From Pseudomonadota bacterium (GTDB lineage: Bacteria > UBA10199 > 2-02-FULL-44-16 > JBDRGF01): a DNA stretch of 64,000 nt. The translations under genes were made by a program, and so were the position numbers. This document shows, piece by piece, positions 35,285-53,929 of the stretch. The number at the start of each line of letters is the position of its first letter. The first letter of the stretch is position 1. The stretch is taken from the NCBI GenBank assembly GCA_043818055.1, contig JBDRGF010000075.1:1733-65732 (forward strand), read 5' to 3'. The notes beneath the pieces were generated by a model. The model saw only the letters and a program-made list of their open reading frames with translations. It ran no database searches and was not told the DNA's origin.

Positions 35285-37330
35285 CTAGAATATCGCTACA
35301 TCCCTCCAGATGAATTTATTTCCCAGAGACTCCTGTCGAAAGGTGAGCGTTCCATTTGGATCAGTTGTTGTCTCGGATATTTGTTCACCTATTTTTACCT
35401 TATATTTTTTCTCCTTCGAAAGTCCGCCGATCTGGAAGCTTAAGCTATCCATATTTCTTATCTTAAATGATAGCCCCTCTTCCCCTTTGGTCCAGTTTTC
35501 AATCTTGCCGTTGGCCTTTATGAGAAAAGGGGTCTTTGGATAATTTGGAGTCAGGTGGATCTCAGAGATGGTGCCATTGTCTAGATGCACATATGTCACT
35601 CCCTGAAGGCTATTGAAACCTATCACCCCTTTTGATTTTTCCAAATCTATATTACCTGTATAGTTGTCGAATCTGATGGTCCTCAAATCGCCGTTATCTG
35701 AAACCGCCCACGCGGTTTTTGAAATCTTGCTAAATTTGGTCGACAAAAAACCCTTCAGGACATGGAGATATTCAGAGAGGAAGGCCGGGTTCATCTCCTG
35801 GGTGAGTGCCCAGTCATAGGCCTTTATTATTGCATTAAGGGAGGGTTCGCGTTCCGCGTTATATATATGATAATAGACATCGATCGCACGCAGGCGAATA
35901 GGAGATCCTGTATTTTTAAATGTTTCAATTATATATTTGTATCCCCAGTAAGGTCCGCTCCACATATTGGTATAAACATTTTCGTTGCTATTGATGGCGT
36001 AGTTTTGCAGCAGGCCGTTCACATGACGAAAGAGCGGGGCGACATAGGTGTAGCTTGGGTATTCGTTGTCGAATCTCGTATCGCCACCGTTGACATTCAT
36101 TATGTTATGATCATTCACATATTTTAAAGCCTCATAGTCAGGCAGACAATCACCCGTCCAGAAGAACATATCGACCTTTTTTCCTTTCGGAACGATGTTT
36201 TTGTTTAAATATTCGATCGATTTTCCGATCTCGAATTCAGGAGAGTACGTATAGCCGGGGACCTTGATGCCGATGAGACGATCTTTTTTCTCCCATATGA
36301 ACGGGTGAGCCCAGCCGTGACTTGCGGGTTGAATATTTGGCAGCTCAAATGTCCTTTTCATTATTCCTACGATCGAGTCTCTTTCCCTCTTGCTGACCGT
36401 AGTCAAAATATCTCCAACAACAAATGATGCCGAAACCGGAAGGTTATATTTGTTCAAAACCCTATCATACATGACCTGTCCGCAATTCTTTTTTTTGTCT
36501 ATCAGGCTCATGCTTCTTACACCATCACCATCAATATGGCTGTAGAACATGCGCGTGCCATTTAGTGTTGTAACATCCGGCTTGGGAAAATCGGCGTCAA
36601 AGACAGCTGCAAAATATTTAAAAGGATTGATCAACCAACGTGTCTGGTAGTTTATTGAATTATAATATACGGCATACGATGAAAGAATATATCCGCCGAC
36701 AGAGCTTTTAAAAACTGCGTCACAAACAGTTCCGGTGTCCTTTCTCTTGAGTTTTAGATATACCTTTGCCAGTTTGTCGGTTGTTTGAAGGTTAGAGAAT
36801 GAATTCAAATCCTTTCCAAGCTTTCTTTCAAACTCGGTGATATCAGGATCTTTGTATTCTACATCGATCAGAATTGAGCTGGTTGTCGCGCCTCTAGGTT
36901 CATATTTTACTTTGAAAGCTTTGAAAAAATTATCCCAGATACTCTTTTTTGTTGGAATCATATTCTCATTATAATCGAAGCCGAACTGATCTATTATCAT
37001 CACTTTTTTGCCGTTATTCAGCTGTCGGGTAAGCCATTTGGCATAGTTCGGAGCATTGCTAAGCACATTGTCAGTAAACCAGCTGACGATTCCTACGTAT
37101 TTTTGCATCTCCTCGTCAGAGGGGAGCCTCTTTGAAATATCGACGTAATCGACCGTAAAGCCGAGATGATTGAGCGGCATCTCGACCCTTTTTGCAATCA
37201 TGTTTTCGTAGATCTCTTTAATTTCGTTACCGTCGATTACAGCAAGAATGTTTCGATTCACAGCCTGAGCAAATGAGCTTGAGGAAATAAGAATGGCAAC
37301 AGTAAAAATAAAATATTTTAAGTTCTTCAT
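35285..37330 (-). CDS. Secreted PelA-like polysaccharide deacetylase (CE4-like) domain protein, paralog of 48143..50215
   Basis: Signal peptide MKNLKYFIFTVAILISSSSFAQA. CE4-like motifs FYSHIDGDG (TFDDG-like) and PASHGWAHP (H-x-W-x-H-P) lie about 70 aa apart. About 55% identical to the second copy. Start taken at the internal Met ahead of the signal peptide. Confidence 0.45.
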   Translation of the reverse strand: MKNLKYFIFTVAILISSSSFAQAVNRNILAVIDGNEIKEIYENMIAKRVEMPLNHLGFTVDYVDISKRLPSDEEMQKYVGIVSWFTDNVLSNAPNYAKWLTRQLNNGKKVMIIDQFGFDYNENMIPTKKSIWDNFFKAFKVKYEPRGATTSSILIDVEYKDPDITEFERKLGKDLNSFSNLQTTDKLAKVYLKLKRKDTGTVCDAVFKSSVGGYILSSYAVYYNSINYQTRWLINPFKYFAAVFDADFPKPDVTTLNGTRMFYSHIDGDGVRSMSLIDKKKNCGQVMYDRVLNKYNLPVSASFVVGDILTTVSKRERDSIVGIMKRTFELPNIQPASHGWAHPFIWEKKDRLIGIKVPGYTYSPEFEIGKSIEYLNKNIVPKGKKVDMFFWTGDCLPDYEALKYVNDHNIMNVNGGDTRFDNEYPSYTYVAPLFRHVNGLLQNYAINSNENVYTNMWSGPYWGYKYIIETFKNTGSPIRLRAIDVYYHIYNAEREPSLNAIIKAYDWALTQEMNPAFLSEYLHVLKGFLSTKFSKISKTAWAVSDNGDLRTIRFDNYTGNIDLEKSKGVIGFNSLQGVTYVHLDNGTISEIHLTPNYPKTPFLIKANGKIENWTKGEEGLSFKIRNMDSLSFQIGGLSKEKKYKVKIGEQISETTTDPNGTLTFRQESLGNKFIWRDVAIF

Positions 37331-37331
37331 A

Positions 37332-52724: not shown

Positions 52725-53567
52725 TTACTGCGGATGAAAGAAAATTTTATCGAGTTCGATGGTAGAGATATAAGGAATTAGATTTTGTGACCTTGCCATT
52801 TCAGAAATCTTTTCGATAGTTTTTTTATCTCCCGGACTTACATAATCGAGAGCCAGTACCGGCTTTTGGAAAGTTTCCTGAAATAGTTTGATGGGGGCAA
52901 GCCTCTCCCTTGTCCATTCTTCGGATGTGAGTGAATACTTTTTATTTTTGAAATCAAAAGTTGTGTAGATGTCCTCAACGACTAAAGCATCTATTTCATC
53001 CCCAACCATATCCGTCAGGAAGAGTCCGTTGTTGAGGACTATTATGATGTTCGGGAATTTTTTTCGGATCTGCTTTATGAGTTTTACAGCCCCCTTGATC
53101 GATCCCTTTACCCCTTTTTGAGTCTCAAGATATTCGGCAGTATCTATAGTGTCGAGAAAGAGGCCGTCAAATCCCCTTGCCAGAATCTCAGGTATGATCT
53201 CTTTGATGAGCGATTTGAGCCATTTTTTATTTTTTATATCTATCCTGAATGCCCCCGGCCAGTTCTCATTCTCTTCGACGAAAATGTTTTTGGCCTTCAT
53301 CTCCTCGAAGTACCAGTTGTGTTTAGCGATCTCACCGAGGCTCAAATAACCTACTACCTTGCTCCCTTTGTTTTTAAGCGGTTCGATTTGGGGGTGATTG
53401 ATGCTGTCGAGAATGTAGAGGTCAAATTTAGGTATGTTTTCAGCCGGAAATTCGCCGCCATAGAAGCAGAGCCAGGAATTTATTTTATCAGTTCTATTTT
53501 CTGCATGGGATATTTGCATATTCAAAATCAGCGGGGAAAAGGCTAAAATGAAAGTCAGCCATTTCAT
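52725..53567 (-). CDS. GH114-family-like glycoside hydrolase (endo-alpha-1,4-polygalactosaminidase-like), secreted
   Basis: Signal peptide. ...KVVGYLSLGE...GFDGLFLDTIDTAEY... fits the GH114 TIM-barrel pattern. Overlaps the receiver gene by 4 nt, so they are likely an operon. Confidence 0.5.
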   Translation of the reverse strand: MKWLTFILAFSPLILNMQISHAENRTDKINSWLCFYGGEFPAENIPKFDLYILDSINHPQIEPLKNKGSKVVGYLSLGEIAKHNWYFEEMKAKNIFVEENENWPGAFRIDIKNKKWLKSLIKEIIPEILARGFDGLFLDTIDTAEYLETQKGVKGSIKGAVKLIKQIRKKFPNIIIVLNNGLFLTDMVGDEIDALVVEDIYTTFDFKNKKYSLTSEEWTRERLAPIKLFQETFQKPVLALDYVSPGDKKTIEKISEMARSQNLIPYISTIELDKIFFHPQ

Positions 53568-53929
53568 TTCAGGAAGCCCTCAATCTTCTTCATCAGATCA
53601 TCCACAGAATAAGGTTTTACGATGTAGTCATTTGCGCCGGCGGCAATGGCCTTTTCCACATCCTCATCCCTGCCCAAAGCTGAGATGACAATTATCGGCA
53701 CCTTTTTCAGATTGCTGTCGGAGCGGATTATCTTGATCATCTGCATGCCATCTATTTCAGGCATCAAAAGGTCGGCTATGATGAGATCCGGGCCTTCAGA
53801 TATGGCTTTAAACGCCCCATCCTTTCCATTATCCGCTATGAGGACCTCGTAGCCTTTAAATTTCAGGCGATCCTTCATCATCTCCAAAAGGAGAATCTCA
53901 TCCTCTACGACCAGAATCTTCTTTGCCAT
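53564..53929 (-). CDS. Single-domain response regulator receiver (CheY-like)
   Basis: ILVVEDE...LIIADLLMPEIDG...VKP are the receiver signature residues. Confidence 0.8.
   Translation of the reverse strand: MAKKILVVEDEILLLEMMKDRLKFKGYEVLIADNGKDGAFKAISEGPDLIIADLLMPEIDGMQMIKIIRSDSNLKKVPIIVISALGRDEDVEKAIAAGANDYIVKPYSVDDLMKKIEGFLK

Follow-up and report, generated by a model that had tools for sequence, protein, structure and literature searches.

A Pel-type exopolysaccharide locus with a receiver gene in the pelC position, a HEAT-repeat protein and no identifiable PelC

Known Pel systems

Pel, a partially de-N-acetylated polymer of alpha-1,4-linked N-acetylgalactosamine (GalNAc), is among the most widespread of the biofilm matrix polymers, and its regulation is understood almost entirely through cyclic di-GMP (c-di-GMP) acting on PelD. 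This work concerns a locus of the Pel type at positions 35285-53929 of a 64,000-nucleotide stretch of DNA (the window hereafter) from a metagenome-assembled genome (MAG) of a Pseudomonadota bacterium (GCA_043818055.1, contig JBDRGF010000075.1). It is probably an intact synthase-dependent Pel system of a distinct subtype, with the pathway and the dual control that are proposed below. The subtype is defined by a receiver gene in the place of pelC, by a HEAT-repeat protein and by the loss of PelC, and all the bacteria in which it has been met so far are uncultivated and appear to possess an outer membrane.

In Pseudomonas aeruginosa, the machinery is encoded by pelABCDEFG; PelC is reported to take part in export there, and none of the seven genes is reported to be dispensable (PMC7112168, PMC10269871). 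A structural paper of 2025 defined the catalytic base, the metal triad, and the acid and its activator in PelA, and placed the PelA deacetylase in a new esterase family, CE21 (PMC12022489). A split PelA with a neighbouring epimerase is the pattern published for the Gram-positives (PMC7112168), and the fission of pelB was noted earlier in other lineages (PMC7112194). A survey of operon evolution covers the rearrangement of pelA and the fission of pelB and mentions neither receivers nor HEAT proteins; in our full-text search of the literature, no paper came up that counts a HEAT-repeat protein or a CheY-like one among the products of a pel locus. Gram-negative pel loci were surveyed with PelC as the handle (PMC7112168), an approach that would have passed over a subtype that has an outer-membrane exporter but lacks PelC.

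For comparison we used five annotated proteobacterial pel loci from a plasmid collection, four of which have the canonical order A-B-C-D-E-F-G. The canonical type is represented below by the loci L009, L010, L012 and L013 and by the PelA and PelD structures in the Protein Data Bank (PDB). A plasmid locus of the cultured Azospirillum thermophilum (NZ_CP029356.1, L011) turned out to be the best bridge between the window and the canonical systems.

A Pel biosynthesis and export cluster

Twelve open reading frames (ORFs), all co-directional on the minus strand, fill positions 35285-53929 with hardly any free space in the ORF listing. Their order and coordinates had been given in a first-pass annotation made from the sequence alone, and all 12 were found where it had put them; the NCBI locus tags of the cluster genes are ABIE74_06305-06345 of the MAG. 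As far as the encoded proteins tell, this is a real Pel exopolysaccharide biosynthesis and export cluster, in which every Pel function except PelC is predicted to be encoded. The family matches, together with a gene order that recurs in independent metagenomic contigs, put the cluster far beyond chance.

The predicted polymerase PelF (38782..40251, minus strand, like all cluster genes below) is a cytoplasmic glycosyltransferase of family GT4, which matches DUF3492 (PF11997, E=2e-82) and Glycos_transf_1 (PF00534, E=2e-33) and is 35-38% identical to the annotated PelF of the five proteobacterial loci, with E values down to 5e-127. PelG (37332..38741), a polytopic inner-membrane protein of the Pel exporter family, covers profile positions 1-452 of 452 in PF16933 (E=4e-124) and shares 30-32% identity with annotated PelG. 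The PelF-like GT4 enzyme and the PelG-like exporter of the first pass are both secured by these matches. No GT2 synthase was found in the cluster with the Pfam and NCBIfam profiles. The two other identities that the annotation had kept in mind, poly-N-acetylglucosamine (PNAG, pgaABCD) and cellulose (bcs), were ruled out, as no family of either kind reaches its cut-off: PgaA (TIGR03939) scored 61.5 bits against a cut-off of 367 and BcsC 21 bits against 858, in both cases through TPR repeats only.

PelD and PelE are too divergent for the Pel families of Pfam. PelD (43270..44670) is a homologue of the inner-membrane c-di-GMP receptor with four transmembrane (TM) segments, a GAF domain and a degenerate GGDEF domain with an I-site. 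The Pfam model PelD_GGDEF gave no match to it at E<=0.01, the Pfam signal for GAF and GGDEF is weak, and the sequence searches against the PDB stop at GAF and GGDEF structures: the family profile reaches GGDEF structures at E=8e-15 and GAF structures too, and PelD itself at only E~0.5. Recognition came only from profile-profile comparison and fold search. Against a canonical profile of four annotated PelD sequences, hhalign gave 98.2% (E=6e-14) over 363 columns. An AlphaFold2 (AF2) model built with 28 homologues (pLDDT 82) shows both a GAF domain and a GGDEF fold, besides four TM helices and a helix of 80 residues (91-170), and its top Foldseek match in the PDB, with both domains covered, is P. 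aeruginosa PelD (4etz, E=9e-9), the nearest solved structure. The I-site R388xxD391 is nearly invariant in the 28 homologues, while "TPKDE" stands in for GGDEF. The earlier description of a TM-GAF-degenerate-GGDEF protein with RxxD agrees with all of this, and since the I-site is kept, gating by c-di-GMP is likely retained.

PelE (42138..43229) is an inner-membrane protein with TM segments within its first 120 residues and a predicted cytoplasmic HEAT/TPR-like solenoid (HEAT_2 E=2e-7 and TPR_19 E=7e-6 in Pfam). Its family aligns with canonical PelE over 295 columns (hhalign 99.1%, E=2e-18), which supports the PelE-like TM-TPR protein of the first pass.

Two receivers and a HEAT-repeat protein in a conserved order

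The close homologues of the cluster are all metagenomic. The order (RR1)-PelA_H-(GHL10)-PelA_DA-PelB-RR2-PelD-PelE-HEAT-PelF-PelG, in which RR1 and RR2 are the two receivers and the genes in brackets are not always present, recurs in GCA_043823065, in GCA_021810905, in JGI and ENA contigs, and, at 25-45% identity, in an Elusimicrobia-labelled MAG, so that the synteny on which the annotation had staked its reading is kept in the related loci. Two more distant loci, L007 from Nitrospinaceae and L023, are without RR2. A metagenome scan gave 10 loci, mostly short, and a scan of GTDB genomes with a three-sequence PelD alignment returned only two genomes, both already in the alignment. In the Elusimicrobia-labelled MAG (L006, 19975-22052), a gene resembling elongation factor G, not pelG, stands behind pelF; pelG must then lie elsewhere in that genome or be missing from it.

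RR2 (44673..45050) is a single-domain receiver (PF00072, E=7e-19) in the canonical position of pelC, and the profile searches gave it no closer family assignment than receiver. Its residues D12/D13, D56, S86 and K108 are intact and also conserved in the orthologues. Wherever the DNA in question is available, which is the case for 12 related loci, the RR2 gene lies directly 5' of pelD, at a distance of 2-20 nucleotides (nt), in all 12. Among close relatives RR2 is 55-64% identical, against 53-65% for PelD and 36-47% for PelE, the HEAT protein and PelB. A receiver fixed upstream of pelD and evolving at the rate of PelD is a pattern typical of physically interacting partners.

RR1 (53564..53929) is the single-domain CheY-like receiver at the head of the cluster (PF00072, E=3e-26). 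Its phospho-site residues D10, D53 and K105 are also conserved in orthologues, which stand directly upstream of PelA_H in L001, L002, L003 and L017; RR1 is frequent and not universal, as L006 and one JGI contig are without it. It shares 33% identity (E=6e-20) with the receiver that heads the pel locus of A. thermophilum. The two embedded CheY-like receivers of the first-pass annotation are thus real, with their phospho-acceptor residues complete.

The HEAT-repeat protein, also predicted earlier, is encoded at 40248..42134. It is a cytoplasmic protein of 628 amino acids (aa) with no TM segment predicted and a clear HEAT_2 match (E=2e-20). Its orthologues are full-length at 37-41% identity, and in six of six loci that cover the region the gene sits between pelE and pelF. 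Its profile finds alphaRep/PBS-HEAT solenoids only in the PDB. The idea that it is a paralogue of PelE was dropped as unsupported (hhalign 38%).

The fixed receiver and the HEAT protein probably add a layer of control to this Pel subtype. That the receiver is fixed beside pelD, and the HEAT partner fixed as well, suggests that the synthase itself takes a second input, based on phosphorylation, next to the one through c-di-GMP.

To the right of the pel genes, positions 56337-62798 are densely packed with signalling genes: a protein-kinase-like gene and two histidine kinases, one triple-PAS and one GAF-PAS, each with a single-domain receiver next to it. Histidine kinases lie within 3-8 kb of the locus, and one also adjoins the L002 locus. 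The kinases of this region are candidate phosphodonors for RR1 and RR2, though they are not conserved beside related pel loci. In L001, the pel locus of the closest relative, a divergent gene for a 105-aa Hpt-domain protein (5939-6256) lies beside RR1, with no counterpart in the window; it hints at a multi-step phosphorelay.

Hydrolase, deacetylases and precursor supply

The bifunctional hydrolase-deacetylase PelA of the Gram-negative models does not occur here: the two activities are in separate genes, with the gene of a GHL10 lipoprotein between them. PelA_H (52725..53567), a 280-aa protein with a signal-like sequence at its N-terminus, is predicted to be a stand-alone periplasmic hydrolase of the endo-alpha-1,4-N-acetylgalactosaminidase kind. 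It matches the GH114-type family PF03537 (E=2e-22), and its best match in the PDB is the hydrolase domain of PelA (5tcb, E=6e-16), ahead of TM1410 and the GH114 structures. E198 aligns with the catalytic Glu that was mutated in 5tsy (E218A), and the identity to the "endo alpha-1,4 polygalactosaminidase" of A. thermophilum is 34% (E=3e-58). That the hydrolase is encoded apart from the deacetylase, as had been claimed, holds on this evidence.

PelA_DA-1 (48143..50302; 683 aa in the NCBI gene call) is a PelA-type (CE21) deacetylase with a signal peptide followed by mixed alpha/beta, deacetylase and beta-rich domains. In the PDB sequence search it matches residues 283-848 of the solved PelA 9cgy at E=5e-67, and the catalytic motif residues D303, D305, H373, H377, E486 and H524 are all there. 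Where P. aeruginosa PelA has the activating His526, it has Q301; the same Gln occurs in 31 of 115 homologues and can be taken as a normal variant. Its paralogue PelA_DA-2 (35285..37378; 681 aa in the NCBI gene call), likewise with a signal peptide, keeps H281, D283, D285, H354, H358, E466 and H504. The annotated PelA of Azonexus matches both, DA-1 at E=1e-89 and DA-2 at E=1e-103 (Azonexus residues 271-903), while Pfam and NCBIfam gave zero matches for either of these proteins of about 700 aa. The duplicated PelA-like deacetylase seen at first pass is thus right for both paralogues, and only its class label, CE4, has to give way to CE21 (PMC12022489).

The second deacetylase is a variable component, which was not found behind pelG in L020 and is specific to the window among the related loci compared. 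Variable as well is the GHL10 lipoprotein (50342..52411), a predicted accessory protein with a GHL10 TIM barrel (PF02638, E=7e-8, 32.4 bits against a cut-off of 27.9) and a GH42M-like domain (PF08532, E=3e-7), whose N-terminus has a hydrophobic stretch and then a Cys, much as the TIM-barrel hydrolase lipoprotein had been described. It has no sequence match in the PDB, and an orthologue (66% identity) occurs in L001 only, the other related loci being without one. Both are variable accessories, not conserved features of the subtype.

Divergent from the cluster, and outside the coordinates first given for it, a PelX-like epimerase of the short-chain dehydrogenase/reductase kind is encoded on the plus strand (53923..54933), predicted to be a UDP-GlcNAc/UDP-Glc C4-epimerase. 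It matches PF01370 (E=4e-59), and its second-best match in the PDB is 6wjb (E=1e-53), with WbgU and WbpP also close. We take 6wjb to be PelX; the paper on PelX cites this code (10.1101/2020.05.26.111013). An epimerase is found in the corresponding place in L002 and in A. thermophilum. A GlmM-like phosphoglucosamine/phosphohexose mutase follows on the minus strand (54986..56344), with four of four PGM_PMM domains (E=1e-39 to 1e-11); it may help in precursor supply, its position being what ties it to Pel. In function, the cluster takes in the epimerase (53923-54933) and possibly GlmM (54986-56344) too. From the homology of the enzymes and the PelX-like epimerase, we infer that the product would be a partially deacetylated alpha-1,4-GalNAc polymer.

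Proposed export without PelC

The PelB-like protein (45160..48081) has 973 aa, with an N-terminal TM helix, about 650 aa of TPR repeats (TPR_19 in Pfam, E=2e-38) and a C-terminal putative barrel domain of about 290 aa. The last 294 residues have homologues in 72 clusters, where the domain is always at the C-terminus, either of proteins of 900-1300 aa or of split proteins of about 570 aa, and its profile finds outer-membrane barrels only in the PDB (NanC at E=4e-4, TodX and CopB). The last residues are ...LYRF in the relatives and ...LYRFY in the window protein. Judged from these features, the domain is likely an outer-membrane beta-barrel. The window protein is the fused form of PelB, unlike several relatives in which PelB comes as two genes, one with TPR and one with TPR and the C-terminal domain (L002 12145-15134, L006 12049-15307, L016 2-3105 and L017 6615-9604).

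PelC had been called not identifiable, and so it proved. It gave no tblastn match in the window, and a hidden Markov model (HMM) of five canonical PelC sequences, whose positive control was found at E=1e-69, returned nothing from the six-frame ORFs of the window and of L001, L002, L006, L016, L017 and L020, a search that covers the loci and not the rest of the genomes. PelC is thus absent by HMM from all six related loci searched, and in the window the cluster has no spare coding space for a pelC gene. The locus can be seen as a natural experiment on what PelC is needed for.

Proposed pathway and alternatives

The following pathway can be proposed. UDP-GalNAc would be supplied by the flanking PelX-like epimerase, perhaps with GlmM, and polymerised by PelF at an inner-membrane complex of PelD, PelE and PelG. 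In the periplasm, one or both of the PelA-type (CE21) deacetylases would partially deacetylate the polymer, and the stand-alone PelA hydrolase, possibly with the GHL10 lipoprotein, would trim it, before it left the cell through the PelB-like TPR-plus-barrel protein, without PelC. Control would be dual, with c-di-GMP gating through the I-site of PelD and a phospho-input. For the latter, RR2 would dock, in a phosphorylation-dependent manner, on the cytoplasmic part of the synthase, be it PelD or the PelE/HEAT scaffold. The HEAT protein may be an extra cytoplasmic scaffold subunit beside PelE and PelF, extending the PelE scaffold that holds PelF, and RR1 may be a second, less constant phospho-input.

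One part of this proposal goes further than the rest, and we put it forward tentatively, as somewhat short of an even chance: that the synthase counts both RR2 and the HEAT protein among its true subunits, with polymerisation then under the joint control of c-di-GMP, at the I-site of PelD, and of a dedicated receiver that docks on PelD and is phosphorylated, and that PelB exports the polymer without a PelC funnel. If true, this would be a post-translational AND/OR gate with two signals, of which no example is known among synthase-dependent exopolysaccharide systems. The immediate impact is limited in that every carrier is uncultivated.

Several findings weigh against the pathway and its control as proposed, and it is best to take them together with the explanations that they would favour. 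No conserved partner histidine kinase was found: those beside the L002 locus and those beside the locus in the window are unrelated, and among the related loci the Hpt gene occurs in L001 only. The phospho-relay control suggested at first pass is a reasonable reading of the phospho-acceptor residues, all of which are intact, but it comes without a conserved kinase. The receivers could then stand outside the machine, as free regulators (phosphate sinks, shuttles or transcriptional regulators) co-located for the sake of co-expression, with the HEAT protein as a generic chaperone or scaffold. Single-domain receivers are indeed abundant in the window, with two further ones beside the histidine kinases (60070-60432 and 62418-62798); the Hpt gene beside RR1 in L001 would fit a phosphorelay; and a leading receiver is also found in the canonical-type loci of Caballeronia and Azospirillum, where PelD alone is thought to gate. 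Against this, RR2 keeps its place within 20 nt of pelD at every related locus where this can be seen and evolves at the same rate as PelD, as physically interacting partners typically do, and no kinase or Hpt gene travels with RR2. We find this explanation unlikely, if still one to be reckoned with.

The second group of points concerns the binding of c-di-GMP and the polymer. The second canonical Arg that contacts c-di-GMP is aligned by hhalign with K421 of the window PelD, and with Lys421 in this position the binding of c-di-GMP is not assured. Besides, PelD is only about 17-21% identical to canonical PelD, a divergence with which the polymer could differ. A Pel-type machinery that makes a chemically different polymer, for example one that is rich in GlcNAc or differently modified, would account for the GHL10 hydrolase, the two deacetylases and the divergent PelB, PelD and PelE, of which the last two are seen by profile methods only and the first is barely detectable; it has also been pointed out that divergent pel operons may not yield an identical polymer (PMC7112194). 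We nevertheless consider this improbable, given that PelF, the predicted polymerase, keeps its 35-38% identity to canonical PelF, that the catalytic Glu of PelA_H and all the CE21 catalytic residues are kept, that a PelX-type UDP-GlcNAc 4-epimerase adjoins the locus, and that the GHL10 protein and the second deacetylase are missing from most relatives.

The last points concern export. The alignment of the PelB C-terminus with that of canonical PelB is weak (hhalign 68%, E=5e-5), so that of the PelB-like TPR-plus-barrel protein first described the TPR part stands and the barrel part is weakly suggested; an AF2 run on this C-terminus as a single sequence, without an alignment, gave an unusable model (pLDDT 27); and since PelC is reported as part of the path in P. 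aeruginosa and all seven genes as required there, export without PelC is unproven. It is nonetheless very improbable that the PelB-like protein is a periplasmic or cell-surface TPR scaffold in a Gram-positive-like system, in which the absence of PelC would be trivial, as the failed model, the modest similarity to the canonical porin region and a PelA split as in the Gram-positives (PMC7112168) might suggest, given that in the PDB the C-terminal domain matches nothing but barrels of the outer membrane, that its last residues are the aromatic ...LYRF(Y) typical of outer-membrane proteins, that the TPR proteins which carry it are of PelB-like length and always have it at their very C-terminal end, and that it comes from cells in which the lipoprotein here and the TolB, TonB and Lgt genes of the relatives point to an outer membrane.

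Operon layout and neighbouring genes

The spacing of the genes was computed with the likely true starts, not with those of the ORF listing; likely internal starts concern four genes, at ~50194-50215 for DA1, 37330 for DA2, ~43202 for PelE and ~38729 for PelG. Two junctions overlap by 4 nt (-4 nt), where the RR1 stop overlaps the start of PelA_H and where the HEAT stop overlaps the start of pelF. The shortest gaps are those of PelG/DA2 (1 nt), RR2/PelD (2 nt) and PelE/HEAT (3 nt), followed by PelF/PelG (52 nt), DA1/PelB (61 nt), PelD/PelE (67 nt), PelB/RR2 (109 nt), GHL10/DA1 (147 nt) and PelA_H/GHL10 (313 nt). A scan for promoters and terminators gave matches no more numerous than in shuffled sequence. 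The predicted compartments are cytoplasmic for RR1, RR2, the HEAT protein and PelF, membrane for PelD, PelE and PelG, and exported for PelA_H, the GHL10 protein, DA1, DA2 and PelB, a predicted pattern that is consistent with the model of the Pel pathway. Two tandem genes for EamA transporters of the drug/metabolite transporter (DMT) kind follow DA2 on the same strand (33399-35283, with gaps of 1 and 7 nt) and may be co-transcribed with pel; the pair was not seen behind pelG in the relative L020, and is specific to the window among the related loci compared.

Farther away, positions 8400-26000 form a low-GC island (GC 0.34-0.39 against 0.42-0.48 elsewhere) with four radical S-adenosylmethionine (radical-SAM) genes, one with SPASM and one B12-binding, along with a PmbA/TldD-like peptidase, a pump of the AcrB family, a major facilitator superfamily (MFS) transporter and a methyltransferase. 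The island looks like a peptide-modification cluster, of the kind that makes ribosomally synthesised and post-translationally modified peptides (RiPP-like), and was possibly acquired horizontally; an apparently non-coding gap lies within it at 18343-19832. Three tandem paralogues at 27989-30259, each ~240-257 aa long, have a P-loop-like sequence, "GRPAxGKSEF", at the N-terminus and no Pfam match, and at 7129-8349 a single ORF encodes a c-di-AMP synthase (diadenylate cyclase) of the CdaA type fused to a YbbR-like domain.

Comparison with known systems

The likeness to the pelABCDEFG system of P. aeruginosa lies in the homologous PelF, PelG, PelD and PelE, in both catalytic domains of PelA and in the TPR exporter, and the window keeps the gene order A-B-(x)-D-E-(y)-F-G. 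From the canonical type it differs by the split PelA, by the lack of PelC with a receiver in its slot, by the 628-aa HEAT protein inserted between pelE and pelF, by a very divergent and shorter PelB (973 aa against 1164-1481), and by the added second deacetylase and GHL10 lipoprotein. Insertions of other kinds exist: in the plasmid pel operon of Azonexus (L009 9026-9520), a gene for an "antitoxin MazE-like protein" stands between pelB and pelC.

The pel locus of A. thermophilum, for which we found no paper and which is known from its RefSeq annotation, has the order receiver, epimerase, PelA_H, PelA_DA, PelB1, PelB2, PelC, PelD, PelE, PelF, PelG. Its "GAF domain" PelD matches the window protein at E=1e-23 and its PelE at E=2e-4, and PelF and PelG match too. 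It differs in that it has a PelC (annotated as "GNA1162 family protein", E=1e-16 to canonical PelC), that no receiver stands between pelB and pelD, that it has no HEAT gene, and that its PelB is in two genes. Since the leading receiver, the split PelA and the epimerase occur there together with PelC, these features are not new. Single-domain receivers stand directly upstream of pel in the cultured Caballeronia sp. Sq4a (L013 1390-1773, next to pelA) as in A. thermophilum (L011 1-381), and we found no literature on a receiver in this place in cultured proteobacteria. The Gram-positive pelDEA_DAFG operon of Bacillus cereus ATCC 10987 shares with the window the separate pelA_H and PelA_DA, a 4-epimerase (galE), the lack of PelC and the I-site of PelD; it is without PelB, its deacetylase gene lies between pelE and pelF, and no receiver or HEAT protein has been reported for it (PMC7112168).

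For a receiver that controls an exopolysaccharide machine there is a functional analogy only, in the single-domain receiver EpsW of Myxococcus xanthus (NF041866); RR1 was tried as a member of that family and rejected at 67.7 bits against a cut-off of 200. BcsE of cellulose secretion, a degenerate REC-GGDEF protein, is again an analogy in function only. What the analogy covers is a receiver, free-standing or degenerate, whose gene goes with a secretion system and which adjusts the output of polymer post-translationally. Set against all these systems, the locus is ordinary in its chemistry and its core machinery, and what makes it distinctive is the absence of PelC, the receiver that is fixed in its place and the HEAT partner that is fixed along with it.

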